Positions 14,336 to 27,388 of a stretch of 64,000 bases of DNA are shown here, piece after piece. Under the pieces are notes generated by a model that saw only the letters and a program-made list of their open reading frames with translations, did no database searches and had not been told where the DNA came from. The position numbers were made by a program, and so were the translations under genes. The number at the start of each line of letters is the position of its first letter. Within the stretch, counting starts at the first letter, position 1. Where the stretch lies: the IMG/VR virus record IMGVR_UViG_3300044568_003939, one strand, 5' to 3'. This DNA is from a virus.

Positions 14336-15145
14336 ATGAATCCAAATATCTCAATCCCACCAACAGCAGCTGACGCATATCGTGCAATGTTAGCAGAACA
14401 AACATACGCTTCTCTTAAAGAAGTTGCGCTAACCGAAGTAAAACAGGTTACACTTAGTATTCCATTTCCTGGCTCCAACGAGAAAAAAGTTCTCGCCCAG
14501 GCTAAAGAGATTGGTGTTAAGAATGGATTTACCGTTCTTGGTGGTGAATATGACCGCTATGATGAAGCAGTATATGTCACAATCAAAGGCGATCTTAGCA
14601 AGTTAGCTAAATTTGTTAATAAGTGGATGAGCTCCGACGATAGTGACGAAGAAATTTTAAATGACTATAGTGAATCATATGATTCCTCTATAAATGAAGG
14701 AAAGATGGTCACATTGACTGTTCCATTTCCTGGGTCAAACGAAGATAAAATTATGGCTCAGGCTAAAACTCTTGGTAAGACTCATGGCTTTACTGTTCTT
14801 GGTGGTGAATACAACCGTTATGACAAAACTGTTGATATTGAACTTAAAGGCGATCTTAGCAAGTTAGCTAAATTTGTTAATATGTGGATGCGTACTGACG
14901 ACAGTGACGAGGAAATTTTAAATGACTATAGCGAATCATATGATTCCTCTATAGCTGAAGAAACTGAAGCGCCTGATTATGGATTTGCTTCTAATCCTCC
15001 TAAAGTTAAGCTTAAGCAATTGAAGGCAGTCATTAAAAAAATTCCTGACAATAAAGTTGATTACATTGTACATGTTCTTGCGCGCCTTGCAAACTTTGAA
15101 CAAATCAAAGAGATTATGAAGGGTATGAGCGTAAAGAGTAACTAA
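14336..15145 (+). CDS. Putative internal head protein, leader family member 2, with a tandem ~85-aa duplication
   Basis: Late promoter; TAADAYRAMLAEQTYASLKE; two PFPGSNE...DDSDEEILNDYSESYDSSI.E repeats. Confidence 0.65.
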   Translation: MNPNISIPPTAADAYRAMLAEQTYASLKEVALTEVKQVTLSIPFPGSNEKKVLAQAKEIGVKNGFTVLGGEYDRYDEAVYVTIKGDLSKLAKFVNKWMSSDDSDEEILNDYSESYDSSINEGKMVTLTVPFPGSNEDKIMAQAKTLGKTHGFTVLGGEYNRYDKTVDIELKGDLSKLAKFVNMWMRTDDSDEEILNDYSESYDSSIAEETEAPDYGFASNPPKVKLKQLKAVIKKIPDNKVDYIVHVLARLANFEQIKEIMKGMSVKSN

Positions 15146-15175
15146 TAATCTAATTATATAAATAAACTACAATCT

Positions 15176-15679
15176 ATGGACAACAATATCTCAACTGCAG
15201 CCGATGCATATCGTGCAATGTTAGCAGAACAAACATACGCCTCTCTTGAAGAAGCTGCACATGAAGTGCTTTCAGAAGGTAAGTATATAATTTCAGTTGA
15301 CAACTTAAAGAAATCTTTTAAAGCGCTTTCATCGGCTCAAAACGGCTTAGATGTGGCAATAAAAGACTATGATTCAATTGAAGGCCATAGCGGTCATGGT
15401 TCAGGCCATCATCAAGCTGGAACGGTTATTGTATATTATCGCAAAAAAATTAAAGAACATATCAATGCGATGATTGAAATTCAAGAGGGTTTAATGGAGC
15501 AAGGTGAAATGACAAAGCTATTGCAACGTGCTTTCATTGATGAATTGGAGGATAATGTTGAATCATTGCAAAAACAAATTGAATCTCGTGATGATAATAA
15601 TTATATTCTTAAGACTCAATTAAGCTCACGTAAAGCAGTGCTCGCTAAAGCAAAAGCAGATCTTAAGACTTTTAAATAA
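15176..15679 (+). CDS. Putative internal head protein, leader family member 3
   Basis: Late promoter; ISTAADAYRAMLAEQTYASLEE. Confidence 0.65.
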   Translation: MDNNISTAADAYRAMLAEQTYASLEEAAHEVLSEGKYIISVDNLKKSFKALSSAQNGLDVAIKDYDSIEGHSGHGSGHHQAGTVIVYYRKKIKEHINAMIEIQEGLMEQGEMTKLLQRAFIDELEDNVESLQKQIESRDDNNYILKTQLSSRKAVLAKAKADLKTFK

Positions 15680-15689
15680 ACTACAATCT

Positions 15690-15833
15690 ATGAACGACCA
15701 CATCTCAATCCCACCAACAGCAGCTGACGCATATCGTGCAATGTTAGCTGAACAAACATACGCCTCTCTTGAAGAAGCAGCCGATGCCATTGAAAAAGCT
15801 GGTGGTAAACGACCAAAGATTGTAAAGGCGTAA
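15690..15833 (+). CDS. 47-aa leader-family mini-protein (not in the ORF track)
   Basis: MNDHISIPPTAADAYRAMLAEQTYASLEEAADAIEKAGGKRPKIVKA*. Confidence 0.6.
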   Translation: MNDHISIPPTAADAYRAMLAEQTYASLEEAADAIEKAGGKRPKIVKA

Positions 15834-15857
15834 CAACAACTTATATAAATAAAGTAT

Positions 15858-16553
15858 ATGAACAACAACAATATATCAACAGCGGCCAACGCATACCGTG
15901 CAATGTTAGCAGAACAAAGAAACCAATTAACCGAAGCTTTTTCATATAAGGATAATGGTGATAAAAATGAACTCTCTAAGAAAGAAGTAAAGTCTATAAT
16001 TGATAAGTTTTGCGATAAACACAATTTGACTGTAGATTGGTATCCGGCTGCTAAAGATAGATTAGGTTGGTTTAAAGATGATGGCGATTTAAGCGTCAGA
16101 GTTAAAAAAAGTGATGCAGATACTCCTTCGTCTCCGCACATTGTGATACAATTCTCATGGTATAATAATGGGATGTTGGTTGGTCTTCATGGCTATAAAG
16201 ACAATCTTATGAAAGCTAAGCCTATTGATAAGGTTACATCTTCTGACGTTGAAGGCGCATTTGAAGCACAAATTGCTGGAGTAAAACCGGTTAAAGGTAC
16301 TGTTGCTAAAATTAAAGAAGTTGCGCTTAAAACACTCTCTAAGATTAACAATGTTGATATTACAGCAGCCGATATTAAAACCGCAGAAGCAGACGTTGAT
16401 GATGCTGGTATTACTCGCATTTTGATTCCTAGCACGTGTGTCATATACCTCTTGACCAATGCTGACATTAAGGAATATGAATTTGGTGATAGTGACAATG
16501 AAGACCTGTTCTCTGTAGGCAATGGACAAAAACTTGTTGTTGTAGCAATCTAA
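15858..16553 (+). CDS. Putative internal head protein, leader family member 5
   Basis: Late promoter; ISTAANAYRAMLAEQRNQLTE. Confidence 0.65.
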   Translation: MNNNNISTAANAYRAMLAEQRNQLTEAFSYKDNGDKNELSKKEVKSIIDKFCDKHNLTVDWYPAAKDRLGWFKDDGDLSVRVKKSDADTPSSPHIVIQFSWYNNGMLVGLHGYKDNLMKAKPIDKVTSSDVEGAFEAQIAGVKPVKGTVAKIKEVALKTLSKINNVDITAADIKTAEADVDDAGITRILIPSTCVIYLLTNADIKEYEFGDSDNEDLFSVGNGQKLVVVAI

Positions 16554-16569
16554 TTGTATAAATAAAGCG

Positions 16570-16684
16570 TATGGTACAGGACAAACATAATAATACAGCA
16601 AACGAGCAGCTCGCAGGACCTGCGCCGTTCCGCTGCAGTATTATATCAAAGGGACTTCCGCCCGCATAGAATCCAGACACCGTA
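16570..16684 (+). ncRNA. Candidate late small RNA, long hairpin with central bubble (6S-like)
   Basis: Lies between TATAAATA (16557) and the terminator at 16700; TATGGT/ACCGTA and ATAATAC/GTATTAT stems. Confidence 0.35.
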
Positions 16685-16698
16685 AATTTAAAACACTT

Positions 16699-16732
16699 AC
16701 CTTTGTTCTGGAAACGGAACAAAGGTTTTTTA
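16699..16732 (+). terminator. Intrinsic terminator
   Basis: ACCTTTGTTC-tggaaacg-GAACAAAGGT-TTTTT. Confidence 0.75.
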
Positions 16733-16980
16733 TTTTTACATTTTAGACAAAAACTCCTTTACAAATCTCAATTTTTAGATTATAATAATCGCATAACAAA
16801 CGGCAACAACAAGTTGCCCAACATTTTTTCAAAATCTCAATGCGCGCCTTGTGCTACAAACAAGGTAACGACCGTGGTTGAACGGCTTGGATCTGAAAAG
16901 AGATGCAATGACAGTAAGTTTAAATATGGAGCCGTGAGTCCCTTAGCGCACACCAATGCGCAACTCACAAATTTTCAAAA

Positions 16981-17055
16981 CCTCCTGTAGCTCATCGGAA
17001 GAGCGGCTTCTTTATAAGGGGCGGGTAGTTGGGTCAGCACCAACCAGGAGGACCA
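16981..17055 (+). tRNA. tRNA-Ile(TAT), non-canonical T loop
   Basis: CCTCCTG/CAGGAGG acceptor, loop TT-TAT-AA, T arm GTTGG-GTCAGCA-CCAAC, ACCA end. Confidence 0.75.
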
Positions 17056-17159
17056 ATTTGCAAACGGACTCACGGAAAGTGGCGACGCACATGAGTGATT
17101 AAGTTCACGTCTTCGGATCAACATGACAAGTATGCCTGTAGAAGCTTTCCAAATTTTCA

Positions 17160-17236
17160 CGGATATTAGCTCAGCCTGTTAGAGCGCTGCGTTTGGGACG
17201 CAGAAGTCGTAGGTTAGAATCCTACATATCCGACCA
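17160..17236 (+). tRNA. tRNA-Pro(TGG)
   Basis: Cloverleaf, CGGATAT/ATATCCG, TT-TGG-GA, CCA. Confidence 0.9.
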
Positions 17237-17243
17237 GCTTAAA

Positions 17244-17333
17244 GGAACGGTGGCTGAGTGGTCTAAAGTACTCCCTTGCTAAGGGAACGTGGCAGCAATG
17301 TCACCGTGGGTTCAAATCCCACTCGTTCCGCCA
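17244..17333 (+). tRNA. tRNA-Ser(GCT)
   Basis: Long variable arm, TT-GCT-AA, GCCA. Confidence 0.9.
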
Positions 17334-17357
17334 ATCTCAAACCAATATATAAACTAT

Positions 17358-17594
17358 ATGAAACAAACATACACACTAGCAAGCAGCGAATTTTGCGGAC
17401 CATGCAAGATGATTAAGAAGTATCTCGCAGAGAATAGTATCTCCGTGGCTGTGATCAATATGGAAGATGATCAAAAGTTTTTCATGGAAAACGGTATCAA
17501 GACTGTTCCCGTTCTCCTAAGCTCTGATGGCGCCAGATATGCTGGTGTTGATGCCATTCTGGGCCATTTTTCAGCAAAAGCTGTAACTTGTTGA
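17358..17594 (+). CDS. Glutaredoxin/NrdH-like redoxin
   Basis: CGPC active site; GIKTVP cis-Pro motif. Confidence 0.75.
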   Translation: MKQTYTLASSEFCGPCKMIKKYLAENSISVAVINMEDDQKFFMENGIKTVPVLLSSDGARYAGVDAILGHFSAKAVTC

Positions 17595-17848
17595 TTTTCA
17601 ACGGCTAAAAATAAATGCAAAAACATGCATTTTTTCCTTTACAAAGCCGATTTTTTGTGGTATAATAATTCTGTAAGGCGAAACTAATTCCCCAAACCGA
17701 AGCTAAATAAGATCTGGATTTAATAATACTTTCTTGTTTACAAGTTGCAGAAATTAGTTTACAATTACAACACGATCAAACTGGTTGAGATTCAAAACCT
17801 CGGCTGATGCGATTCCTTCAAGGCAAAGTCTTGATTGTAGCTTGTTCT

Positions 17849-18003
17849 CCAAATATGATTGTTGCTAGGCGAAGGGCTAATAACCCTGCTGAACGGTGAA
17901 AATCCGTTCCGTTAATCACTACGCTCTAAATGAGGTTACCGCCTCGGAATGAGAAGCCCTAGTTAAAATCATTGAGGTCATGTTGAGTGACAATCATGTT
18001 TGG
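17849..18003 (+). ncRNA. Unknown multibranched structured RNA
   Basis: ~18-bp closing stem CCAAATATGATTGTTGCT/AGTGACAATCATGTTTGG enclosing three hairpins. Confidence 0.5.
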
Positions 18004-18290
18004 ACCACAACATTTCTTTGACAACATTTTGATTTTGAAACCCAGGAGCATTCAGTCCCTGGTACCAAACAAGAAGAATGTGATTCCGCTCCTCGCTTTG
18101 AGTTGAAGCCGTTCACAAGTAAAACTTCACTGAAAACACTTTTAGGTGCTCATCCAGCTGATCAAGGCGGTGAGTTAAACGTGCGATCAGTACGGCCTTT
18201 AAATTTTAATAGCACGTTTGATTATTGCGGCGAGCGACTGCAAGACCAGTGGTCGCAATAATCAAAAGGAATTAGTGTAATACTTTTAAT

Positions 18291-18365
18291 CGCGGGTTAA
18301 TCGAGTGGTTCAGATAGGTGTCTCATAAGCATCTCACGGGAGTTCGAATCTTCCACCCGCAACCA
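18291..18365 (+). tRNA. tRNA-Met(CAT), initiator-like
   Basis: C1:A72 mismatch (CGCGGG...CCCGCA-ACCA), CT-CAT-AA. Confidence 0.75.
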
Positions 18366-18370
18366 ATTTT

Positions 18371-18460
18371 GGGACGAAGGCAACTGTTAGATGCGTTGCG
18401 GCGGTCTGTAAAACCTCTACTTAAGAAACACCGTGGGTGCAATTCCCTCTCGGCCCACCA
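18371..18460 (+). tRNA. tRNA-Tyr(GTA), atypical
   Basis: CT-GTA-AA loop, ACCA end; imperfect stems. Confidence 0.55.
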
Positions 18461-18463
18461 TCC

Positions 18464-18610
18464 TTTATTGTTAAAGCATCTTTGGTTTGATGCTGTCCAT
18501 ATCGAGAACGGACTATGCCGGAGCATACGAACGAAGTACAAGTTCTATGGTGCAAACGGAAAATGCGCTCAAAGGCGCGCGAGGTGGTTCAATTCCACAG
18601 ACAATAAACA
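18464..18610 (+). ncRNA. Expanded tRNA-like RNA, copy A
   Basis: Homolog of 21273-21409; acceptor-, D- and T-like arms plus extra arms. Confidence 0.7.
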
Positions 18611-18622
18611 TTTTTGATTTTT

Positions 18623-18708
18623 GGGTAGGTATACCGTTAAGGAGACGGTTCAGACTGTAAATCTGACGCCGCAAGGCTCGCTGGGATCGTTCCCCAGACT
18701 GCCCACCA
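18623..18708 (+). tRNA. tRNA-Tyr(GTA)
   Basis: TCAGA-CTGTAAA-TCTGA, long variable arm, ACCA. Confidence 0.85.
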
Positions 18709-18808
18709 ATTTGTATGAACAGCCGCTTTTCGTGTCTAGGGAAAAGCTCCACAATATCAAGGTTATGATATGGCGCTGGTGAAATTCCAGAACGGATTCA
18801 AATTTTTA

Positions 18809-18883
18809 CCTGATGTAGCTCAGAGGAAGAGCATCCGCTTGATAAGCGGAAGGTCGAGATATCGTAATTCTCCATCAGGACCA
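18809..18883 (+). tRNA. tRNA-Ile(GAT)
   Basis: CCTGATG/CATCAGG, TT-GAT-AA, ACCA. Confidence 0.85.
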
Positions 18884-18885
18884 AT

Positions 18886-18959
18886 TGAGGATTAGCATAA
18901 TGGTAATGCATCTGACTTTGACTCAGAACATAGAAGTTCGATTCTTCTATCCTCTACCA
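18886..18959 (+). tRNA. tRNA-Gln(TTG)
   Basis: TCTGA-CTTTGAC-TCAGA, CCA. Confidence 0.85.
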
Positions 18960-18965
18960 ATTTAT

Positions 18966-19054
18966 GGGCTGGTATGATCGAGCTGAGCTGATGATTGCAT
19001 ATTGCAATTGTTCTAAGGAACCTTAAGTGAGTTTGAATCTCACACTGTCCACCA
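18966..19054 (+). tRNA. Degenerate tRNA (possibly Cys GCA)
   Basis: T arm GTGAG-TTTGAAT-CTCAC and ACCA end; weak anticodon stem around TTGCAAT. Confidence 0.35.
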
Positions 19055-19067
19055 ATTTCAATGAGAG

Positions 19068-19173
19068 ATTAGAGGTAAGTTGATATACAACACCTTCTAT
19101 AGCATTATGGTAATGCGCCGACATGATATGTTGGAGATTCCCGGGTTCAAATCCCGGAGAAGGGTGCTCTAAT
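19068..19173 (+). ncRNA. tRNA-like core (GAT loop) in an extended acceptor helix, no CCA
   Basis: Cloverleaf at 19091-19166 continued by ATTAGAG/CTCTAAT pairing. Confidence 0.5.
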
Positions 19174-19221
19174 AAACAACGAGGCGTCAGACCACGCCTA
19201 CAACATTGAGAAAATTTTAAT

Positions 19222-19296
19222 GGAGGTAAAGCTTTAATGGTGAAGCATCGAGCTTTTAACTCGAAGAACTGGGATCGTTACCCAGTGCCTCTACCA
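19222..19296 (+). tRNA. tRNA-Lys(TTT)
   Basis: TCGAG-CTTTTAA-CTCGA, ACCA. Confidence 0.85.
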
Positions 19297-19303
19297 ATTT
19301 CAT

Positions 19304-19378
19304 GGGGTTGTAGCATAACGGTAATGCACCTGCTTTGCAAGTAGTAGATTGTCAGTTCGAATCTGACTAGCTCCACCA
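19304..19378 (+). tRNA. tRNA-Ala(TGC)
   Basis: GGGG 5' end with G3:U70, TT-TGC-AA, ACCA. Confidence 0.85.
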
Positions 19379-19486
19379 ATTTCCCTTGGTATCTACCCGC
19401 AATTTGGGTATTGCTCACGAGTGTGAAGCAAGTCAGAAGTTAGGCTGGTCGCGACAGTAATCCTTCTGATGGCCAAGGCTCTTTTC

Positions 19487-19560
19487 GCGGGATTAGTTTA
19501 ATGGTAAAATGATAGTCTTCCAAACTGAAGTCGAGAGTTCAATTCTCTCATCCCGCACCA
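19487..19560 (+). tRNA. tRNA-Gly(TCC)
   Basis: GCGGGAT/ATCCCGC, CT-TCC-AA. Confidence 0.9.
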
Positions 19561-19568
19561 ATCACAAT

Positions 19569-19639
19569 GGGCGATCTCTGGCATGGAGGTCTAAAAACCG
19601 AAAGGTATCCTCTGGGTTCGATTCCCAGTCGCTCCACCA
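19569..19639 (+). ncRNA. Minimal tRNA-like RNA lacking a normal D arm and anticodon arm
   Basis: GGGCGA/TCGCTC acceptor, perfect T arm CTGGG-TTCGATT-CCCAG, ACCA. Confidence 0.55.
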
Positions 19640-19647
19640 ATCATAAC

Positions 19648-19722
19648 GGGCTGTTAGTAGAATGGATATAACGTTGCGCTACGAACGCAAAGATCTAGGT
19701 TCAATTCCTGGGCGGCCTACCA
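19648..19722 (+). tRNA. tRNA-Arg(ACG)
   Basis: TTGCG-CTACGAA-CGCAA, CCA. Confidence 0.85.
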
Positions 19723-19866
19723 ATTTTCGCTAATGTATTCGGGTACGATGCATCGGCAACTCTACCAGTGAAGCAAATCATATTTGCGAAGAATTCGTGA
19801 CCAGTGAAAGTCGGTTTAACGGTAGAGCAATTTTAATACATAGTGTAAAGGCATAAGATATAAAAA

Positions 19867-19943
19867 GATGCATTAGGGTAATTGGTTATCCCGCCACGCT
19901 TTCACCGTGGAGATTACGAGTTCAAATCTCGTATGCATTGCCA
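19867..19943 (+). tRNA. tRNA-Glu(TTC)
   Basis: CCACG-CTTTCAC-CGTGG, GCCA. Confidence 0.85.
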
Positions 19944-19950
19944 TTCTTTT

Positions 19951-20025
19951 GGGTCGTTCGTTCAACGGATAGGACTGAGGATTTCTACTCCTCCGATGCA
20001 GGTTCGATTCCTGCACGACCCACCA
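19951..20025 (+). tRNA. tRNA-Arg(TCT)
   Basis: GAGGA-TTTCTAC-TCCTC, ACCA. Confidence 0.85.
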
Positions 20026-20108
20026 TTTTCTGATACTGTGGTGGTATCGCTTACAGGAGTTTTCGGTCCCTACACTGTGTCTTTGCTACACGGAACCGAT
20101 AAATTTTT

Positions 20109-20185
20109 GAAGATGTAGCTCAGCTGGTTAGAGCACTTGCCTGTCGAGCAAGACGTCGTGGGTTCGAGCCCCATCATTTTCGCCA
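20109..20185 (+). tRNA. tRNA-Asp(GTC)
   Basis: CTTGC-CTGTCGA-GCAAG, GCCA. Confidence 0.85.
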
Positions 20186-20196
20186 TTCTTTTCATT

Positions 20197-20273
20197 GGCC
20201 GTGTAGCCGAATTGGTATAGGCAGCGAACTTAAAATTCGTAATCTGTCGGTTCGAGTCCGACCATGGCTACCA
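20197..20273 (+). tRNA. tRNA-Leu(TAA), short variable loop
   Basis: GCGAA-CTTAAAA-TTCGT, ACCA. Confidence 0.85.
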
Positions 20274-20333
20274 TTTTATAGCTTAAAGGTTAATGCAACA
20301 AACTCTGAAATTATGATTTGTATAAATACTTTT

Positions 20334-20963
20334 ATGTTATATACAATCTATCAAGTAACCAATTTGCTTAACAGCAAGATATACATTGGAAAGCATCAGA
20401 CAACTAATCCTGATGACTCTTATTATGGTTCAGGTGTTGCACTGAAGAAAAGTATTGCTAAACATGGTAAAGATAACTTTAAGAAGGCGGTATTATTTGT
20501 ATTTCAAACCGAAGAGGAAATGAATGCAAAGGAAACAGAATTGATTACTGAAGAATTTGTTGCTCGTAGCGATACATACAACATGGGAGTGGGTGGTGAA
20601 GGCGGCGCTCATTTTAAAGGCAAATCTCATTCGGCTGAAACTGTTGAACGTATCAAACAATCACTTGGTTCTGATGAGAATAAACAAAAACTCATTGAAG
20701 CTGGACGTAAAGCAGGCTCTTTATCCAAAGGAAGAAAGTTAAGTGCAACTGCTCGACAGAATATGTCTGACGCTCAGAGAAAAGCTATCTCCGATGAGAC
20801 CAAGAAAAAAATTTCAGAATCATTAAAGAAATTTAATGAAGAAAATCCAGGCCACCTCAAAGGTCTAGTAAAAAGAAAACGCAAACCTTTAAGTGAAGAA
20901 ACTAAGGAAAAGCTTAGACAAATTCAACTTAAACGTTGGCAAAATAAAAGGCTCGTAGCTTAG
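20334..20963 (+). CDS. Free-standing GIY-YIG homing endonuclease with NUMOD3-like repeats (Seg-like)
   Basis: YTIYQVTNLLNSKIYIGKH...YYGSG...YNMGVGGEGG; SEETKKKIS-type repeats; late promoter at 20321. Confidence 0.85.
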   Translation: MLYTIYQVTNLLNSKIYIGKHQTTNPDDSYYGSGVALKKSIAKHGKDNFKKAVLFVFQTEEEMNAKETELITEEFVARSDTYNMGVGGEGGAHFKGKSHSAETVERIKQSLGSDENKQKLIEAGRKAGSLSKGRKLSATARQNMSDAQRKAISDETKKKISESLKKFNEENPGHLKGLVKRKRKPLSEETKEKLRQIQLKRWQNKRLVA

Positions 20964-21026
20964 CGGTTTTAAAGCGTTCGACTCATAATCGAAGGATCCT
21001 CGGTTCGAGTCCGAGCGGGCCCACCA
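20949..21026 (+). tRNA. tRNA(CAT), Ile2/Met type; overlaps the endonuclease stop codon
   Basis: TTCGA-CTCATAA-TCGAA, T arm, ACCA. Confidence 0.8.
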
Positions 21027-21272
21027 TTTTATATACCGTCTCGCGGCGTCACCGCTAGTGTGTTCACGAAAGAACGTAACAAAACGGCAAGTTGTTACCC
21101 ATATGAAAGAAGCTTGTAGCGCAAGTAAAAATCGTAAGCCAAACGTTGAAGTGATGTTCAACAAAGGGTGCCCCGGCAGTTTGATGCCGTTATCTCGCAA
21201 TTTGCTGGAGCATGCGTTAAGCATTGCGCAGAAGGCAAATGATGCAATTCGTTGCAGCGAGAATCATTTACT

Positions 21273-21409
21273 TTTATTGTTAAAGCATCTTTGGTTGATG
21301 CTGTCTGCCCAGACTATGACAATACACCGAACGCTGATCATGTTCAAGTGTGTAATGTAAAATGTGCTCATAGGCGCGTGAGGTGGTTCAATTCCACAGA
21401 CAATAAACA
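21273..21409 (+). ncRNA. Expanded tRNA-like RNA, copy B
   Basis: Homolog of 18464-18610 with compensatory changes. Confidence 0.7.
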
Positions 21410-21615
21410 TTTTTACAATGGAAATCGGTGAGTTAGGTGCATATTAGGTTATGCATACAGGCTTGAAATTCCGTGTGGGTCAATATCCATACATTGTAAA
21501 TATAAAAAGCCATATGAAGGTTACGGGCTTCCTTCTCCAGCTATAAGGATTCATATAGCTAGTGCCAGTCCTGCATAACGCATTGAGAGTGCATACTCTA
21601 TGGACAAATTTTCAA

Positions 21616-21690
21616 TGGCTAGAGGGAATCTGGCGAGTGAATTCATAACGGGGTGCGACTCCCCGAGATTCCACAAACACTCTAGCCACC
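21616..21690 (+). ncRNA. CCA-ending RNA with a T-arm-like hairpin but non-cloverleaf topology
   Basis: GGCTAGAG/CTCTAGCC-ACCA; GGAATCT/AGATTCC; CGGGG-TGCGACT-CCCCG. Confidence 0.55.
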
Positions 21691-22084
21691 ATTTTTGGGT
21701 ATCACTCCTCTGATAGGGAGAAGAAAAGAACAAGTCCCTGCGCTAGCAATGCAAACCCTAACACCTGAATTGACAGGAACCCACCTTTTTTAGAAGAGTA
21801 ACATAACGGCAGTTATGGTTGAGGTTCGAATCCCCATTTGTTGGAAACAACAATCTGGCGACTTATATTGGTTCAATTCCAATCTCTTCTGCATTTTTAG
21901 ATATGTAAAGGGAAGGACGTTCAGTTAGTCCTATAGTTTGCAAACTCCCGCAATCAAACTTTATGCCATATCTATTTTTCAATGCAACACGCAACCGTAT
22001 AGGTTGCTTCGATATAGGAATAGTCATAAAAGCTTAATGACGTACCATATCTGAGAGGTTTTGACACCAGTGCTTGCTCCAATT

Positions 22085-22310
22085 TTAACATCGGCGTGGA
22101 AAGCAGACACGCAGGAAAATGTGGTTGGTATGAAAGTGCTCTTGGAGATACACCGAGATGAGAGCATGAGTAGGCCGACCTTGACCGAAGAGAAGAGCCG
22201 TGTATGGCGAGTAAACAGAATGCAAACCAACTCCGAATCGAGATTGAGAGGCATGTCCTGTTGGTAGTAATAACTACGTCTAATCAGAGTAGCGCCTGAT
22301 ATGTTAAACA
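22085..22310 (+). ncRNA. Giant tRNA-like RNA (~225 nt) with a large insert at the anticodon position
   Basis: TTAACAT/ATGTTAA, GCGTG/CACGC, CAGGA/TCCTG, GTAG/CTAC and ATCAG/CTGAT arms. Confidence 0.5.
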
Positions 22311-22811
22311 TTTTCTACTGCTCCAGCAGCGACCGTTCGCTACGGAAACTGTAAAGCATGGCTTACAACACTGGAGGAAGGAAGCCACAAAGCACCTGTC
22401 TGTTAAATGCGCGGTTCTTCCGCAATAGGGTGTAAAGATGACAGCCGGAAAGACGGCACAACGTCAGCAGGAAAAGCAGGTTCAATGCCTGTCGCGAATG
22501 GCCATAAACCTCAGCGGGCCGGTAGGGATCGGACTGACACCTTTATCTGTCGAGAATATCTACACACGGCTGTGAAGACCTATGCTGATGATCCGTCTGA
22601 GGCGATGTAAATCGCTACAAAGTGGCCCTTCCATGATTCAGCGAAGATGCTGTATATACGTGAGGGGTATATGCATATACAGGTCTGACAGATAAACAAT
22701 TTTTGCGTCCTATGCGTTTTCTCACCGTTTTTGCGACGATGCAATTGAAGCGCAATGAGCGGAAAAAACGGATCAGGTTAGAGGTTATCCAGTAAAAACC
22801 TCACCAATTTT

Positions 22812-23033
22812 ATGACAAACAAACAAGTAACATTATACAAAGGAACTCGTGAAGAGTTTGAAGCAAAATATGAAGATTACAAACCAGTGGGAAAATCATT
22901 CAAAGAACAATTGGATGCTATTCAATCTATTGGAATGGTATTTTATTTTTTAGAAACATCAACTAAGGATGAAGAAGGTAATTATCTAATAAATCGTTTA
23001 GTTGAAAATGATTTCATTATAATCGCATCATAA
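22812..23033 (+). CDS. Hypothetical protein inside the RNA array
   Basis: 73-aa AT-rich ORF with typical phage codon usage. Confidence 0.55.
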   Translation: MTNKQVTLYKGTREEFEAKYEDYKPVGKSFKEQLDAIQSIGMVFYFLETSTKDEEGNYLINRLVENDFIIIAS

Positions 23034-23279
23034 ACAATTTTGCGGTCATTGAGGGGTATTCGTCACTAAGACGTTTGTGCAAGGTAGTCAACATAAAACG
23101 CACGATTCAGCGATGAGTTAATGCAGTTGATAGAAATCGAGTCTTTCGAGGCGATTATTCGGTTGGGAACACATTGCACGATATAGCGACCTGAGCCGCA
23201 AACCCATTTCCAATTACCTGACTGCAAGCGGCTATACCTGATAAAGTAGTGCGCAGTAGGTCAGGAATTGGTCAATTTT

Positions 23280-23348
23280 ATGAGAGGATCATACGGAGAT
23301 CGCTAGGCCCATAGTCTAGAGAGGAGGTTAAATTCCTTCCCCTCATAA
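23280..23348 (+). tRNA. Degenerate tRNA-like element (CAT loop), no CCA
   Basis: CTAGG-CCCATAG-TCTAG; T-like arm GAGG-TTAAATT-CCTT. Confidence 0.4.
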
Positions 23349-23650
23349 TTCGTATTCATACGCGATAAAGTATGACGCTGCTAAGAGTGTATCCTTAGAT
23401 AGTCCCAGCCCTGGATGAGTCGTAGGCCGTAATGCTATGGGCACATCATTTTCTATCGTGCGTTTTGATCGCCCGAAGTATTCGAGGAAAACAGACTGGA
23501 AGGTAGTCTATATACACATTGAGTATGTAGGTGTTCGGCGAGACAGTACTTGTAGAAAAGTGAAGAGGGATCAATGAAAAGTGAGAGTCTGCAAAACGAC
23601 ACCACACCTCTTCAGCGATAGAAAAACTTTCGTATATATAACTATACAAA

Positions 23651-23737
23651 TCCACTGTACCCTAATGGCAAGGGACCGCACTGTTAATGCGGCGTATATC
23701 CGAGAGGATTATGAAGGTTCGAGTCCTTCTGGTGGAG
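23651..23737 (+). tRNA. tRNA-Asn(GTT) with long variable arm
   Basis: TCCACTG/TGGTGGA-G, CCGCA-CTGTTAA-TGCGG, ATCC-gaga-GGAT variable hairpin. Confidence 0.75.
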
Positions 23738-23766
23738 CCCTTTATTATTAACGACTTATATATAAT

Positions 23767-23841
23767 GGCTCATACGCATAGAAAGCGATGCACCGGATTT
23801 GTAACCCGGATAGGAGTGTGCATGTCACTCATGAGCCTCCA
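23767..23841 (+). tRNA. tRNA-Thr(TGT), non-canonical T loop
   Basis: GGCTCAT/ATGAGCC, TT-TGT-AA, TCCA. Confidence 0.75.
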
Positions 23842-23848
23842 CTTTTAT

Positions 23849-23929
23849 GCAGGCGTTAGCGTAGCGGCCGAACGCACCTGATTTACATTCAGGCAATCAC
23901 CGCAGGTTCGAATCCTGCCGCCTGTACCA
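23849..23929 (+). tRNA. tRNA-Val(TAC)
   Basis: CCTGA-TTTACAT-TCAGG, ACCA. Confidence 0.8.
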
Positions 23930-23953
23930 TTTCATAAGATGTATATATACTTT

Positions 23954-24589
23954 ATGAGAAAATTCATTTTGTTTTTAGCGCTGATGGCTGCCGTTCAATC
24001 ATGCGCACCACAAAAAGAAACGCTGTTGTTGTCAAACCCACCAGTTGCACAGCTTGTGGCTCCATCGGTTGAAAAAGCAATCAGTGTTAAAAACAAAATC
24101 AACAAAACGGTTGACTCACAGCGTGTTAATATAACAGCGGTTGACTCTGACATCAAACAGTCTATAGCGTATGCAGTGTTGGTCAAACCATACACTGATG
24201 TGGATGCAAATGGCACCACGCATTATTCAGCCTTGATTCGTTACTTAAATAGTGCCGACACACATATACAACTGCTTACAGCTGCAAACACAGCCTTGAT
24301 TGCCGATGAGCAATCGCTGCAAACTCTTTTGGATGCTAGTTTATCAGCCGCACAAAACAAGGATGCCGAAGCTGCGTCACTGATTGCAGCTGCCGCTAAT
24401 AAAGACTTAGTGATAGCTGAAGGTAAGATCAAACTTAATGCCGCGCTTGCTAAAGCTCGTGTGTTAGAGCTTGATCTTGAAAACGCTGCAGCCTATAAGA
24501 AAGGCGTGGTTGCATTGGTTGCTCTAATTTTTCTCTATTTTATTTTCCGAGCAGTTGCTAGCATATGGTCGCCATTCTCTAAATTTTAA
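23954..24589 (+). CDS. Lipoprotein with coiled coil and C-terminal TM helix (unimolecular-spanin-like topology)
   Basis: MRKFILFLALMAAVQS-C lipobox-like signal; Ala-rich helical middle; GVVALVALIFLYFIF. Confidence 0.5.
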   Translation: MRKFILFLALMAAVQSCAPQKETLLLSNPPVAQLVAPSVEKAISVKNKINKTVDSQRVNITAVDSDIKQSIAYAVLVKPYTDVDANGTTHYSALIRYLNSADTHIQLLTAANTALIADEQSLQTLLDASLSAAQNKDAEAASLIAAAANKDLVIAEGKIKLNAALAKARVLELDLENAAAYKKGVVALVALIFLYFIFRAVASIWSPFSKF

Positions 24590-24613
24590 TATAGTATAAA
24601 TACAATTTCTAAA

Positions 24614-24688
24614 GGGGATATAGCTCAGCGGTAGAGCAGATCACTTGCACTGATAAGGTCTGCAGTTCGATCCTGCATATCTCCACCA
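24614..24688 (+). tRNA. tRNA-Ala(TGC), second copy
   Basis: GGGGATA/TATCTCC with G3:U70, CT-TGC-AC. Confidence 0.85.
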
Positions 24689-24691
24689 AAT

Positions 24692-24765
24692 GCGTTGTTC
24701 GTCTAATGGTAAGACTATTGATTCCAAACCAATAAACGTGGGTTCGATTCCTACACAACGTGCCA
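24692..24765 (+). tRNA. tRNA-Trp(CCA)
   Basis: TT-CCA-AA loop, G73, CCA. Confidence 0.75.
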
Positions 24766-24770
24766 TTTTT

Positions 24771-24845
24771 CCCTACTTAGCTGAGGCGGATTAGCGCAAG
24801 ACTGAAAATCTTGAAAGGTTGGATCGTTACCAACAGTAGGGGCCA
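24771..24845 (+). tRNA. tRNA-Phe(GAA)
   Basis: CAAGA-CTGAAAA-TCTTG, CCA. Confidence 0.85.
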
Positions 24846-24858
24846 TTTTTTTATATAC

Positions 24859-24930
24859 GGAAGTTGTCCGGTTGGTCGAGGACACTGTCTTGAAAACGGA
24901 AGAGGGCGACGAGCTCTCCGTGGGTTCAAA
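24859..24930 (+). pseudogene. Truncated tRNA-Ser(TGA), broken in the T loop
   Basis: GGAAGTTG 5' end, CT-TGA-AA, variable arm, GTGGGTTCAAA, then no 3' T stem or acceptor. Confidence 0.75.
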
Positions 24931-24954
24931 GGTTCGTTTTGTATAAATAAACCC

Positions 24955-25800
24955 ATGGACTATAAGCGAATCTATAATGACCTTATTACATATCGTCAAA
25001 ATAATGTATTGTCTAATGGTTATATTGAAAAACATCATATAATTCCAAGATCGTTAGGTGGAAGCAATGATAAAGAAAACATTGTTTCATTAAGCGGGAG
25101 AGAACATTATATTGCACATTTATTACTTGCTCGATTTAATCGTTGTAGTAAAACGGCATATGCTCTTTGGATGATGCAGATGAAAAATTCTAAAGATTGT
25201 GATCGCCCTCGTATCAAGAGCGGCAGAATGTATGAATGGATTCGTAAGGAAATCATTAAGTATACTTCAAGGAATAATAGGATTACATCTAAAGGCGAAC
25301 GTAATAGCCAACATGGTACACGTTGGATTTGTAACATCAAATTGCAAGAAAACCGAAAGGTGAGTAAAGACGAACTTATTCTTGATGGATGGATTCTTGG
25401 GCGTAATAAATGGGTTGTCAGTACTTATGTTCCAAAGAAATATATTAACATATGTAATTTAGTTCTTCAATCAAATTCACGTATTATTTACGGCGAAGAT
25501 ATTCCCGATGGATGGGTAAAAGGAAAAAATAAATGGTTAACCCGTAAAAGAAAAGATACCAAGACTAGAGTTAAGAAAACTAGAGCCGAACTTAAATTTT
25601 TAAGTGATGAAAAACTCAAAGGATTGGCAAAAACATTATGGGCTGAATTTTTTATTAGTAATCATGAGTCTCTTAATTCTTTTGCAAAAGAAAAAGGCTT
25701 AATAAGAATGACAATAAAAGGATGGTTTAAAAAGTATATACCTGAGTATCCATCAGATATTACAACCAAATCATTAAAGAAACATATAACGGGTACTTAA
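24955..25800 (+). CDS. Free-standing HNH homing endonuclease
   Basis: MDYKRIYNDLI...YIEKHHIIPRSLGGSNDKENIVSLSGREHYIAHLLL; late promoter at 24942. Confidence 0.85.
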   Translation: MDYKRIYNDLITYRQNNVLSNGYIEKHHIIPRSLGGSNDKENIVSLSGREHYIAHLLLARFNRCSKTAYALWMMQMKNSKDCDRPRIKSGRMYEWIRKEIIKYTSRNNRITSKGERNSQHGTRWICNIKLQENRKVSKDELILDGWILGRNKWVVSTYVPKKYINICNLVLQSNSRIIYGEDIPDGWVKGKNKWLTRKRKDTKTRVKKTRAELKFLSDEKLKGLAKTLWAEFFISNHESLNSFAKEKGLIRMTIKGWFKKYIPEYPSDITTKSLKKHITGT

Positions 25801-25880
25801 CCAGAACGGCTTCTGGGACCGCCTTGAAAGCGAATCGTGGGATTATATCTCATGGGGATCGACACCTCAGGTACCCGCCA
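25791..25880 (+). tRNA. tRNA-Ser(TGA), intact; overlaps the HNH stop codon
   Basis: GGGTACT/GGTACCC-GCCA, CT-TGA-AA, long variable arm. Confidence 0.8.
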
Positions 25881-25934
25881 TTTTAAAACCATATCTTTAT
25901 AAGAAAAAGGATAATGTTGAATTTGGCGTTTAAT

Positions 25935-26011
25935 GCAAGTGTAGCCCAATTGGCAGAGGCGACAGATTTAGGATCTGTATAGTGTAGGTTCGAGTCCTAT
26001 CACTTGTACCA
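25935..26011 (+). tRNA. tRNA-Leu(TAG)
   Basis: ACAGA-TTTAGGA-TCTGT, ACCA. Confidence 0.85.
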
Positions 26012-26021
26012 TTTTTTTATA

Positions 26022-26096
26022 CGCACAGAGGGTGACTGGATAATCGACAGCCTGCAAAACTGTTTTTAGTGAGTTCGATTCTCACCTGTGCGTCCA
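26022..26096 (+). tRNA. tRNA-Cys(GCA)
   Basis: CGCACAG/CTGTGCG, CT-GCA-AA, U73-CCA. Confidence 0.8.
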
Positions 26097-26139
26097 TTTT
26101 AAACTTATTGTCAAAATCAAAATGTTATAAATACGGTAT

Positions 26140-26400
26140 ATGAATATATTTTCGTCATCATACATCGACAGCATGATTGAAGACGCCGCGGCCATTCTTG
26201 AAGGCAAGACGCCAGCAGAGCGCAAACAATTCCTGCGAGATCGAGTGCAAAGCTTACGTGATCGCATGGATAAAAATAAACAAAAGATGCGTGACTCTTC
26301 ACTTGAGCCTGAAGAAAAGAGCCGCCTTAAATTTCAGAATGATGCTATGACTAAAGAAATCACATGGCTTAATAGCAAACTCAATGCACCAACCGTTTAA
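26140..26400 (+). CDS. Putative internal head protein
   Basis: Late promoter at 26126; EDAAAILE leader. Confidence 0.5.
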   Translation: MNIFSSSYIDSMIEDAAAILEGKTPAERKQFLRDRVQSLRDRMDKNKQKMRDSSLEPEEKSRLKFQNDAMTKEITWLNSKLNAPTV

Positions 26401-26422
26401 TATAAATAACTAACAACCAATT

Positions 26423-27388
26423 ATGAAACCATTCCATTATCACGAAGATCCAATGTATGCTGCAGCTGCAGCAATTCTCGCTCAAAAAACTGTATCTGAA
26501 GAAGCAGTACAACTCGATGAAGGCGTAGAAGATATTGCAGCTGCTGTTGCCAATTTCAAAAAAGGTGACAAAACAAACTTTGGTGTAGTTACCGATGTTT
26601 CTTCCACTAGTATTAGCTTTAAAGCAAAAGACCTGCCGGTTACAAAGATCGCTTTTAACCAACGCAAGATGGGCAGCAAAGATTTTGTACTTGATAAACT
26701 GGTTAAACTTAAAGAAGGCGTTTCCCTTGAAGAAGGTGTTATTGAATTACAAGAAGCCGTTTCAATCCGTTTCATTGATGACCTAATTGATGCGGCTAAC
26801 AAAAATCAAAGTAAAAATAAGCAATTGCGTCAAGGTCAAAGTATGATGATTGCTTTGAAGGACATGAACTCAAAATTGTATTCTGATGTTACTGGTACCG
26901 ATTATGATCCGTTTTATAATGATAAGAAAATTCCAGCATTACTGAAACATTTAAATCCTAATTGGAAGTTTTCTGATCTGGACGAGATCATGAAAGAAGC
27001 TATGGCTATGGGTATGGGTACAGCAACCATCACTGCTCCAGGCAACAAGTTGCACGGCAAACAAGTTAGCATCTTCCACAAGTTTGACGATGGTCGCCTT
27101 AATGTTCAATACGCAAAGAGTGACAAGAAGGGCGATGTGATTAATCTCACACTCAACAAAGGTCAATACAAATTGGATGAAGCTGCGCTCAAGCAAAGTT
27201 TACCAACTAAAGAAAACAAACAGCGCCTTGAATCATTTATGAAGAAGTTTAATGCGCTTCGTGACGCATTTCCAGATGTAATATTTCGCGGTACACACGA
27301 TGAAAAAGTTGAAACAGGTTTAATTGATGATGACAATATCGTTCAATATCTTGGATCAAAGATTCCATTAGTTCACAAAGGAAAATAA
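26423..27388 (+). CDS. Putative internal head polyprotein
   Basis: Late promoter at 26401; modules separated by QLDE, KLKE, SLEE, ELQE, IMKE and KLDE. Confidence 0.55.
   Translation: MKPFHYHEDPMYAAAAAILAQKTVSEEAVQLDEGVEDIAAAVANFKKGDKTNFGVVTDVSSTSISFKAKDLPVTKIAFNQRKMGSKDFVLDKLVKLKEGVSLEEGVIELQEAVSIRFIDDLIDAANKNQSKNKQLRQGQSMMIALKDMNSKLYSDVTGTDYDPFYNDKKIPALLKHLNPNWKFSDLDEIMKEAMAMGMGTATITAPGNKLHGKQVSIFHKFDDGRLNVQYAKSDKKGDVINLTLNKGQYKLDEAALKQSLPTKENKQRLESFMKKFNALRDAFPDVIFRGTHDEKVETGLIDDDNIVQYLGSKIPLVHKGK

Follow-up and report, generated by a model that had tools for sequence, protein, structure and literature searches.

The window analysed here is 64,000 nt of DNA from an uncultured lake phage (IMG/VR record IMGVR_UViG_3300044568_003939) and encodes about 28 tRNAs, as judged by ARAGORN and the Rfam tRNA model. 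Two of them, tRNA-Met(CAT) at 20949-21026 (ARAGORN; Rfam tRNA 61.2 bits; CCA end, then UUUU) and tRNA-Asn(GTT) at 23651-23739 (ARAGORN; Rfam tRNA 53.4 bits), flank the segment 21030-23650, which lies inside the tRNA gene cluster and consists of about 17 separately folding small-RNA units of 65-230 nt and one 73-codon gene. The flanking tRNAs are on the + strand, as are all the units below and the gene. The units are non-coding and are read on the + strand, since many G-U pairs in the alignments of units I, K, L, D and F are compatible with that strand only. The array extends outside the segment; a paralogue of unit B, for example, lies on the + strand at 18464-18610. The cluster also holds two homing endonuclease genes, one GIY-YIG (20313-20963) and one HNH (24811-25800), and a gene of the PHROG family 'RNA ligase' is found at 53375-54496.

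A preliminary description of this DNA had reported a string of self-closed structured RNAs, more than ten in number, with almost no ORFs or canonical tRNAs. Comparison with about 120 related lake-phage loci confirms the observation overall: there are more than ten distinct non-coding units, and most are conserved for secondary structure. All seven terminal helices quoted in that description are present where it placed them, and those at 21617-21690 (unit D), 22542-22696 (I), 23039-23202 (K), 23210-23271 (L) and 21412-21500 (C1) stay paired in relatives despite changes on both sides. The helices at 21792-21890 (E1) and 21898-21975 (E2) belong to sequences that fold better than shuffles, and comparative support for the closing helix itself is lacking in both. 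Nor is every part proven: segment H has no relative among these loci, and E0 and E2 have one near-identical relative each.

Compensatory support is clear against shuffle and slide controls for units I, K, L, D, F and NO, modest for C1 and weak for C2. Between 97 and 99% of paired cells in I, K, L, D, F and NO are maintained, compared with 27-58% when the partners are slid, and pairs changed on both sides number 19 of 48 in I, 9 of 47 in K, 6 of 23 in L, 5 of 21 in D, 9 of 30 in F and 7 of 35 in NO. For A, B, E1, G, M and J the support comes from few sequences; for H, E0 and E2 it is absent among the roughly 120 loci. At least eight RNAs of the array are thus conserved with compensatory base-pair changes, and none of them is a family catalogued in Rfam.

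Unit I (22542-22700, about 160 nt) is the most widespread, with 30 distinct sequences from 56 loci; in 33 of the 36 loci that are at least 4 kb long, a tRNA is found no more than 2 kb away from it. It has a 10-bp closing helix with both-sided changes at 7 of the 10 pairs, a GNRA-capped hairpin and long invariant unpaired stretches. Its alignment is 98.5% paired, and its number of both-sided changes is reached by none of 500 shuffles, the slid controls giving 2-4 pairs. All 30 sequences have stops in all six frames. A candidate pseudoknot, CCCUU/GAGGG, is invariant on both sides. Unit K (23039-23205, about 165 nt), closed by UUUGCGG/CCGCAAA, is represented by 19 distinct sequences that are 99.4% paired, with a score matched by 0 of 500 shuffles. 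Unit L (23210-23274), which almost always neighbours K, is a long hairpin of 65 nt whose top 18 nt are invariant and which has the helix CCAATT.CCTGAC/GTCAGG.AATTGG (14 distinct sequences; 0 of 500 shuffles; folding z -3.72). A candidate complementarity between the loops of K and L is likewise invariant on both sides. Unit NO (23453-23622, about 170 nt), closed by CUAUCG/CGAUAG, has a variable inner hairpin; its 12 distinct sequences are 98.3% paired, its compensatory changes are equalled by 1 of 500 shuffles and its covariation score by none. Invariant unpaired stretches occur in K, L and NO as well as in I. Folding z scores of K (-0.95) and NO (-1.44) are not used as evidence, because z does not separate the long units from coding controls (-1.26, -1.42 and +0.52 for ORFs).

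Other units vary in their support. C1 (21412-21500), closed by UUUACAAUG/CAUUGUAAA, has 16 distinct sequences and 22 pairs (98.6% paired, 3 changed on both sides, 0 of 500 shuffles, z -3.22), and its variable internal hairpin takes six different sequences, each of which forms a stem. The adjacent C2 (21508-21606), closed by CCAUA/UAUGG, is weakly supported (11 sequences; 22 pairs, 2 compensatory; score reached by 1 of 500 shuffles), and with a folding z of 0.02 it folds no better than shuffles, as is also the case for unit M. The 3' half of C2 recurs within unit M of three related loci (L026, L117 and L121). Unit J (22706-22808, about 100 nt) is conserved and forms its own cassette (7 distinct sequences, 2 compensatory pairs, folding z -2.18), being found apart from the 73-codon gene in L015, L044 and L063. 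Unit A (21054-21197) is a structured RNA with few relatives, stretches of about 75% identity in L044 and L115; among these three sequences, pairing survives both-sided changes at 8 of the 34 predicted pairs. Segment H (22318-22538) has a GC content of 0.54 and a T-loop-like hairpin, CAGG-UUCAAUG-CCUG; it is unverified, with a folding z of +0.35 and no relative in the roughly 120 loci. E0 (21698-21790; folding z +0.44) has L088 as its sole relative (95%) and is likewise unproven, and E2 (21898-21975), closed by UAGAUAUG/CAUAUCUA, is unproven beyond its folding energy (z -2.38; one relative, 98%).

Units B, D, E1, F, G and M carry features of tRNAs. Unit B (21273-21409) is an expanded tRNA-like RNA of about 137 nt with a 9-bp closing helix, a D-like arm and the T-arm GUGG-UUCAAUU-CCAC. 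Its relatives in L121 and L026 provide compensatory changes at 4 of 41 pairs (folding z -2.15), its paralogue has 87% column identity to it, and a scan of IMG/VR with the exact pattern of its 3' end found nothing. E1 (21792-21893) has a 7-bp closing helix (AGAAGAG/CTCTTCT), the T-arm AUUGG-UUCAAUU-CCAAU and a GAAA-capped hairpin, and ends in GCA (folding z -2.07). Its inner hairpins contain 5 compensatory pairs in comparison with the relatives in L088 (80%) and L100 (72%), whose 5' end differs from that of E1. With the Rfam model of tRNA-Sec, for which the gathering score is 47, E1 reaches only a chance-level 21.6 bits (E 0.43). Unit G (22086-22312, about 225 nt), closed by UUAACAU/AUGUUAA and ending in ACA, has relatives of 77-99% identity in L088, L121 and L019 (4 of 43 pairs compensatory; folding z -1.44). 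Unit M (23282-23447) combines a near-cloverleaf part, M1 (23282-23356), which has CAU in its anticodon-like loop and lacks CCA, with a second domain; ARAGORN calls it at a relaxed threshold only, and its 5 sequences give 2 compensatory pairs and a folding z of about 0. As reported earlier, T-loop-like hairpins recur in the array, in B, D, E1, H and M.

Two further units have a closing stem followed by a CCA-like end. Unit D (21617-21693) has an 8-bp acceptor-like stem followed by N-C-C-(A/U), a 7-bp stem, a T-arm-like hairpin and an internal palindrome; it is known from 10 distinct sequences (98.6% paired; covariation score matched by 0 of 500 shuffles; folding z -4.44). Unit F (21984-22082, about 100 nt) ends in a closing stem and NCCA, and has a hairpin loop in which the invariant palindrome AAGCUU is carried on covarying stems (9 distinct sequences; 0 of 500 shuffles; folding z -2.86). 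Covariance models of D and F find no diverged paralogues in the window and 44 loci, and the G3:U70 pair is absent from both. The stems and ends of D and F may mimic those of tRNAs, which is a weaker proposition.

Could these units be tRNA genes in decay, or spacers that drift neutrally between the tRNAs? Their position within the cluster, the T-loop-like hairpins, the near-cloverleaf of M1 and the lack of support for H, E0 and E2 speak for such an origin. In dozens of contigs from phages, however, the units are 83-97% identical; they show compensatory changes, 97-99% of their pairs are maintained, and I, K, L and NO have their invariant unpaired stretches. A tRNA signal is also missing from Rfam: no row of RF00005 (gathering threshold 29 bits) falls in 21027-23650 at E<=10. 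ARAGORN at default settings likewise finds no tRNA at 21027-23650, so that the earlier statement on canonical tRNAs stands; relaxed settings alone produce calls, at 21762-21844 and 23276-23368 and in the form of intron-containing models. The anticodon-like loops of B (CUGAUCA) and M1 (CCCAUAG) have C at positions 37 and 33, where tRNAs have a purine and U, respectively. Conservation, selection on structure and the modular gain, loss and reordering of the units refute neutral decay, which the preliminary description had itself named as an alternative, in the case of I, K, L, D, F, NO and C1; for the array as a whole we regard it as very improbable.

The expected scarcity of ORFs holds except for one real, conserved gene that the preliminary description missed. 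This gene (22812-23033) encodes a 73-aa protein, is the only conserved ORF of 21030-23650, and has 14 homologues of 68-93% identity without indels. It too behaves as a cassette, moved or absent in relatives (absent in L036 and L063). The protein belongs to no Pfam or PHROG family, and its AlphaFold model (pLDDT 88.6) has no PDB match at E<=0.001; an RNA-binding role can therefore not be claimed for it. Gene callers overlay other units with ORFs of 60-90 aa in related contigs, as over the K/L/NO region in L002-L005, and D (+2, -0) and F (-2) do contain open frames, as they would if the units were unannotated small protein genes. These ORFs are unconserved, and stops occur in all six frames of unit C and of the window copies of K, L and NO. 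Indels of 1, 2 and 4 nt separate relatives of C, D, F, I, J, K, L and NO, compared with none in the 73-aa ORF, and they would shift the frame; because 1-nt indels occur among relatives of F, its 39-codon ORF on the minus strand is disfavoured. The tblastn matches are fragmentary, being partial for the ORFs of G and H, and the ORF of A is disfavoured as a conserved protein because its L115 match consists of two overlapping pieces. The substitutions in helices are moreover compensatory. A test of the codon phase of variable columns is uninformative, as it gave p 0.40 even on the real ORF. That the units encode small proteins is hardly credible in the light of this evidence.

Each unit stands on its own: related phages may retain it, lack it or carry it in another position, as a check for modular gain and loss bears out. 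More than 30 different arrangements occur among the related loci, and the units are therefore independent cassettes. In relatives, G is joined directly to J or I, skipping H, and the B paralogue directly follows tRNA-Met. Joints of 22304 to 22693, 22808 to 23038 and 21030 to 18464, the last being that of the B paralogue, are present in metatranscriptome contigs, and the near-constant neighbours are K-L, N-O and C1-C2. BLASTN of the segment and of window positions 1-16000 against 50,697 GenBank phage records, in near and distant modes, gave no match, so that no cultured relative is apparent among those records. Of 79 metagenome matches to 17-mers, many arose by chance, and only those confirmed by BLAST were used. 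Four matches to MAGs in an 18-mer scan of one genome per prokaryote species were rejected as a clue to the host; none of them carries unit I, and they are therefore taken as chance.

The short A/U linkers said to separate both the units and the real tRNAs are real. ATTTT motifs mark unit boundaries in 13 of 15 cases within 21000-23700, and 12 of these 13 coincide with independently found BLAST breakpoints. A terminal helix, commonly 5'-UUU...AAA-3', clamps the ends of each unit; N-C-A at the 3' end is followed by the U run with which the next unit opens. The tRNAs of the cluster have the same punctuation, CA followed by UUUU, in that their CCA ends precede (A)UUU. CCA as such is conserved in F only, and as CC(A/U) in D; the 3' ends of K, J, L and I are variable, N-C-A-like letters.

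The conserved linker could serve recombination instead of RNA processing. The units would then be processing spacers or recombination cassettes shuffled through their linkers, with a role in cis or at the DNA level and none in trans. CA-TTTT does lie at every recombination breakpoint, and homing endonucleases are encoded in the cluster; in T4, SegB drives inheritance of the tRNA region (PMC2330249). Selection maintains an elaborate internal structure as well as long invariant unpaired stretches, far more than spacers or crossovers need, and the GNRA loops and covarying palindromes suggest a function at the RNA level. We therefore consider a purely cis or DNA-level role improbable.

We favour the view that the array is a set of independent small RNA genes within a phage tRNA cluster, co-transcribed with the tRNAs and processed like them, together with the 73-aa gene, and hold it to be likely. 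Sigma-70-like promoters upstream of the cluster would drive units and tRNAs together, and the units would then be excised in tRNA fashion. Since an N-C-A 3' end precedes a U run, cleavage of the A/U linker by a host enzyme of the RNase E/G type, followed by 3' trimming, would release them; in B, E1, G and M1, which copy the acceptor/T-arm end of tRNAs, RNase P would cut the 5' side. One polycistronic transcript resolved by host tRNA-processing enzymes is plausible in view of the shared punctuation, the acceptor/T-arm-like ends, the lack of terminator-like sites on the + strand of the cluster (none between 16819 and 26500) and the metatranscriptome contigs that cover units. Promoter matches of 10-11 of 12 positions lie at 16758, 17638 and 17737, while the scan as a whole does not exceed shuffles (21 found, 24.4 expected). 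No gene for a CCA-adding enzyme or an RNase is found among the 30 window ORFs scanned with Pfam. Contigs over array units occur in four lake or estuary metatranscriptomes, which were chosen for holding this stretch and may include DNA carry-over and relatives. Uncovered parts and differences in depth between bins provide no basis for ranking expression; a weak hint comes from metatranscriptome X20, where short contigs within K reach a depth of 365-483 compared with 27.8 for the contig that runs from J across the ORF into the start of K. Loose contig ends at 23197 and 23601 bear adapters and were rejected as RNA ends.

Several known systems resemble the array in part. The closest are T4 rnaC and rnaD (species 1 and 2), 139 and 119 nt, which are annotated as 'small, stable RNA' and adjoin tRNA genes at the end of a cluster that holds the GIY-YIG homing endonuclease gene segB, just as the cluster studied here holds a GIY-YIG gene. 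The array shares their setting, namely non-tRNA RNA genes within or at the end of a phage tRNA cluster, on the same strand and with short spacers; they represent a kind of RNA and not a curated family. Like unit B, rnaC has a T-arm (CCGGG-UUCGAAU-CCCGG) beside its 3' end and extra arms, and the two are of near-equal length and similar layout; alignment of B and its paralogue with rnaC alone shows sequence shared in the T-arm letters only. T4 has two such RNAs, whereas the array has about 17, of many unrelated folds, mostly not tRNA-like and shuffled among relatives. To our knowledge, no function has been assigned to rnaC and rnaD for decades. Mimicry of the acceptor/T-arm and CCA-type ends on a body that does not decode are also known from tmRNA, YrlA Y RNA-like RNAs and viral tRNA-like structures, and are shared by B, E1, G and M1 and, as a stem with NCC(A/U) or NCCA, by D and F. 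The array has no Rfam match to tmRNA, Y RNA or any tRNA-like family. The Rfam 15 search, which the preliminary description had proposed, gives no usable match for 21030-23650 at E<=1 or E<=10; over 21027-23655 at E<=10 there are three chance-level rows and no ribozyme, group I/II intron, riboswitch, tmRNA, 6S or Y RNA. No Ro60 gene is found among the window ORFs scanned. A survey of IMG/VR describes thousands of covarying candidate RNAs in uncultivated phages, tRNA-like ones included, and some units of the array may be among them; arrays inside tRNA clusters or cassette shuffling are not described in the parts of that survey available to us (PMC10690425).

By genomic context, GOLLD and ROOL are also among the closest known systems. 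They are phage-encoded RNAs, often near tRNA islands, which assemble through kissing loops (Kretsch et al.). One or a few giant multi-domain RNAs of this kind, instead of many small ones, would explain why K-L, N-O and C1-C2 are nearly always adjacent and why a single metatranscriptome contig runs from D through G, and the candidate self-pairing palindromes of D and F fit such an assembly. Yet each unit closes on itself, the order of units is freely permuted and units also occur alone; GOLLD and ROOL each consist of one RNA of about 600-800 nt, whereas the units here are independent and of 65-230 nt. Rfam 15, the source of the GOLLD and ROOL profiles used by Kretsch et al., yields no GOLLD or ROOL row for 21027-23655 at E<=10 or for 16000-27000 at E<=1. 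We consider a giant RNA to have little probability and retain the array of small RNA genes.

Once released, these RNAs would be stable and might act in trans, with proteins or with one another as binding partners, a weaker part of the proposal. A candidate for mutual binding is unit D, whose palindrome of 6-8 nt is kept in 15 of 15 members, counted by motif anchoring, in four covarying versions (TGAATTCA, TACTAGTA, TGTTAACA and GATATC), which points to self-pairing. D would probably form a symmetric homodimer through it. Covarying palindromes of this kind have been taken as evidence of intermolecular pairs in OLE and the GOLLD bridges (Kretsch et al.). The palindrome of F is, in contrast, invariant and so offers no covariation test, and its self-duplex is weak (-4.3 kcal/mol). 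The F hairpin, with a loop of 9-10 nt and a 6-nt palindrome flanked by A (AA-AAGCUU-A), looks like the HIV-1 dimerisation initiation site, a likeness that is only a lead. The HIV-1 site forms a kissing loop.

Candidate biological roles of the array are taking over the host, a part in translation, and countering defences that rely on tRNA-directed nucleases; an anti-defence arsenal had been the preliminary description's suggestion. Anticodon nucleases are countered by phage tRNAs and by T4 Rnl1 and Pnk. Mimics of tRNA ends and other baits might similarly soak up tRNA-cleaving or RNA-sensing host defences and so complement the phage tRNAs and RNA ligase. The patchy, accessory and reshuffled distribution of the units, the tRNA-like ends of B, D, E1, F, G and M, the ligase gene and the roughly 28 tRNAs agree with such decoys; the most strongly conserved units (I, K, L, NO and C1) are, on the other hand, not tRNA-like, and none of the units has a canonical anticodon arm for nuclease recognition. 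As an account of the array, decoys are thus possible but rather unlikely. Equally tentative is a bolder form of our preferred reading, an 'RNA toolkit' of a kind without earlier description, made up of at least a dozen unrelated, structured RNAs that act in trans and use the tRNA pathway, in which small CCA-tailed mimics of tRNA ends (D, possibly F) would work as symmetric RNA-only dimers joined by a covarying palindrome. If it were true, large phages would in general use their tRNA islands to launch RNA-based manipulation of the host, and D would count as a very small natural RNA whose quaternary structure has evolutionary support.

GOLLD and ROOL set a precedent for elaborate machines among the phage RNAs encoded near tRNA islands. 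The array yields a set of new RNA classes, with alignments ready and none in Rfam, whose units gene callers mis-annotate as small hypothetical proteins. The presence, absence and reordering of units across dozens of relatives constitute a natural experiment, and two testable hypotheses follow from the array, tRNA-type punctuation for release and palindrome-mediated dimerisation of D. If the pattern is general, the share of non-coding RNA in the biology of large phages would far exceed what annotation suggests.

What occupies 21030-23650 is a genuine array of structured RNA genes, most of them new, which shuffle as cassettes within a phage tRNA island. The source phage is large, uncultured and from lake water, and when words were sampled from the stretch, as many as 98% of them recurred in DNA runs labelled lake or freshwater metagenome. 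It has no DNA relative among 50,697 GenBank phage records; its helicase shares only 27-33% identity with the helicases of Sphingomonas phage PAU, Chryseobacterium phages MA9V-1 and MA9V-2, and a 462-kb uncultured phage. The island (16981-26096, + strand; ARAGORN, Rfam) holds 23 tRNAs by ARAGORN, one more by Rfam at 23767-23838 (36.5 bits with the tRNA model, missed by default ARAGORN), and several further at relaxed thresholds. The other tRNA or tRNA-like genes missed at default lie at 18371-18460, 18623-18708 (a tRNA-Tyr(GTA) call once the threshold is relaxed), 18967-19054, 19569-19635 (97% conserved in two related loci, L017 and L019), 24855-24945 and 25791-25880. ARAGORN called no tmRNA in the window; a related contig carries one (L001:15276-15580, tag GKNNVVDSGLALAA). 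The array fills the island's largest tRNA-free gap, between tRNA-Met (end 21026) and tRNA-Asn (start 23651). The island also contains homing-endonuclease-like genes of GIY-YIG (20313-20963) and HNH (24811-25800) type, the HNH gene being flanked by two tRNA-Ser(TGA)-like genes; these two and a second HNH gene (13353-13937) are missing from most related loci.

About 120 related loci were gathered from IMG/VR, JGI, ENA and Logan assemblies, using as anchors a 73-aa protein encoded in the array and words that do not vary in units I, K and NO. When the window is compared with these loci by BLASTN, matches in the stretch break off again and again at the same sharply defined points, and the blocks between them give the unit map. 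The terminal helices quoted in the preliminary description were all found in the sequence. It had spoken of almost no canonical tRNAs; ARAGORN and Rfam find none in the array, and the Rfam search it proposed matches no family, even at E<=10. Related loci also conserve blocks at 17567-17678 and 18617-18712, which sit in other tRNA-free gaps of the island (17334-18290, 18366-18808), and thus the array probably extends past 21030-23650.

The structures are under selection. For each well-sampled unit, distinct sequences were aligned, an RNAalifold consensus was derived, and pairs were counted against shuffled and slid controls. Unit I (22542-22700; 30 distinct sequences) has 48 pairs, 98.5% of cells paired and 19 both-side changes (0/500 shuffles; 2-4 when slid). 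Its hairpin is capped by the GNRA loops GUAA, GAGA, GCAA, GAAA or GCGA, once by a longer insert, on a stem that covaries. Unit K (23039-23205; 19 sequences) has 47 pairs, 99.4% paired, with nine such changes (score 0/500); L (23210-23274; 14) has 23, 98.1% and six (0/500); D (21617-21693; 10) has 21, 98.6% and five (score 0/500); F (21984-22082; 9) has 30, 97.4% and nine (0/500); and NO (23453-23622; 12) has 35, 98.3% and seven (pair count 1/500, score 0/500). Unit C1 (21412-21500; 16 sequences) has 22 pairs, 98.6% paired and three changes (0/500), and its internal hairpin comes as six unrelated sequences that all form the stem; C2 (21508-21606; 11) is weak, with 22 pairs, 97.5% and two changes (score 1/500). 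With three to seven sequences, compensatory changes were found at 8 of 34 pairs in A (21054-21197), 4 of 41 in B (21273-21409), 5 of 24 in E1 (21792-21893), 4 of 43 in G (22086-22312), 2 of 40 in M (23282-23447) and 2 of 26 in J (22706-22808). Segment H (22318-22538) has no relative among the roughly 120 loci, and E0 (21698-21790) and E2 (21898-21975) have a near-identical relative only; these three are candidate RNA units, as yet unproven. Since G-U pairs are frequent, the units are read as + strand RNAs. One relative of K (L045:12-196) has a 24-nt tandem duplication (AAAUCGGGUCCUUCGGGGCGAUUA) in its inner hairpin.

The preliminary description's "almost no ORFs" is right but for 22812-23033, a genuine conserved ORF. 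Its 73-aa product has 14 homologues (68-93% identity, zero indels) and no match in Pfam, PHROG or PDB folds. All six frames carry stops in every sequence of units I and C, as they do in the window's own K, L and NO, and indels of 1, 2 and 4 nt separate relatives of C, D, F, I, J, K, L and NO. Because of these stops and indels, the ORFs placed over units by gene callers in related contigs were rejected as not conserved. Spurious window ORFs give fragmentary tblastn matches: that of A matches one related locus (L115) as two overlapping pieces, and those of G and H find partial query cover only.

The units are gained and lost as modules, as BLASTN against related loci bears out, with more than 30 different arrangements. 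The window reads A-B-C-D-E0-E1-E2-F-G-H-I-J-ORF-K-L-M-NO, and other loci read J-K-L-I-ORF-NO (L015), D-I-J-NO-K-L (L044), L-I-K-L-N-ORF-F (L006), D-I-K-L-NO without the ORF (L036) and B-C-G-D-I-K-L-M-NO (L121). Metatranscriptome contigs add joints from 22304 to 22693, 22808 to 23038 (skipping the ORF) and 21030 to 18464. K-L and N-O are linked pairs; the remaining units are mobile. Recombination also occurs inside units, since in three loci (L026:3801-3977, L117:13818-13993, L121:6300-6475) the 3' half of M is that of C2 (window 21560-21606). Of the 36 loci of at least 4 kb, 33 have a tRNA no more than 2 kb away from unit I.

Some units resemble tRNAs. B, E1, G and M1 (the near-cloverleaf part of M, 23282-23356) stack a T-arm-like hairpin on the closing helix; the 8-bp stem at the end of D leads into N-C-C-(A/U), and the terminal stem of F into NCCA (9/9 sequences). 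No likeness to tRNA is seen in I, K, L, NO, C1, C2, J and E2. The internal 17-nt strand of D contains a palindrome in each of the 15 members, which takes one of four forms (TGAATTCA, TACTAGTA, TGTTAACA and GATATC), and by our count switching between them takes at least six paired substitutions. To judge from sequence, such a pattern points to one copy pairing with another, because neighbouring bases would be unable to pair in one chain; the same reasoning was applied to the OLE and GOLLD bridges (Kretsch et al.). Predicted self-duplex energies are -4.2 to -7.4 kcal/mol. F has an invariant AAGCUU in a loop of 9-10 nt whose stem covaries, which is only suggestive of a self-pairing site.

The linkers are those found between the tRNAs, as first described. 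Of 15 ATTTT motifs in 21000-23700, 13 fall at unit boundaries, 12 matching BLAST breakpoints, and two within the ORF (chance probability ~1e-15 by a rough binomial, boundaries being ~5% of the stretch). A typical unit reads UUU-helix...helix-AAA-(N)CA before the next U run, and island tRNAs end in CCA followed by (A)UUU. RNase E is described as preferring U two nt 3' of the cut in single-stranded RNA (PMC5222698). No + strand terminator-like site occurs in 16819-26500. Three positions (16758, 17638 and 17737) strongly match a promoter (TTTACA-17-TATAAT), in a scan that overall did not exceed its shuffles. From this punctuation, the lack of an internal terminator and the promoter matches, we infer that the units would be co-transcribed with the tRNAs and then, likely, released by tRNA-type processing. 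A promoter-like cassette (TCCTTTACAAA...17 nt...TATAATAAT) occurs in two copies, 77% alike, upstream of the island (16755-16789) and inside its start (17635-17669). A conserved TATATATAACTATA between NO and tRNA-Asn (23622-23650), found at the same place in L026, L045 and L070, is possibly a promoter. The units are covered by contigs of four metatranscriptomes, which come from three lake or estuary studies, and in one set (X20) K-confined contigs reach a depth of 365-483, versus 27.8 for a contig that runs from J through the ORF to the start of K. These are only a hint of expression, as contigs show neither ends nor strand and DNA carry-over is possible.

The closest likeness is to the T4 tRNA cluster, which contains segB, as this island contains GIY-YIG and HNH genes, and at whose end lie rnaC (139 nt) and rnaD (119 nt), both with the annotation "small, stable RNA". 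Like unit B, rnaC has a T-arm adjoining its 3' end and extra arms; the two differ in having no sequence in common beyond the T-arm. Another gene of the window (53375-54496) matches PHROG's "RNA ligase" family at E 2e-51, and an enzyme of this kind repairs cleaved tRNA in T4. GOLLD and ROOL are phage RNAs close to tRNA islands (Kretsch et al.), and their Rfam models find no match in the array. Thousands of candidate viral RNAs are reported from an IMG/VR survey (PMC10690425), and some of these units may be among them. For the array itself, the anti-defence role first proposed is putative, and counter-defence may be one function among several possible ones.
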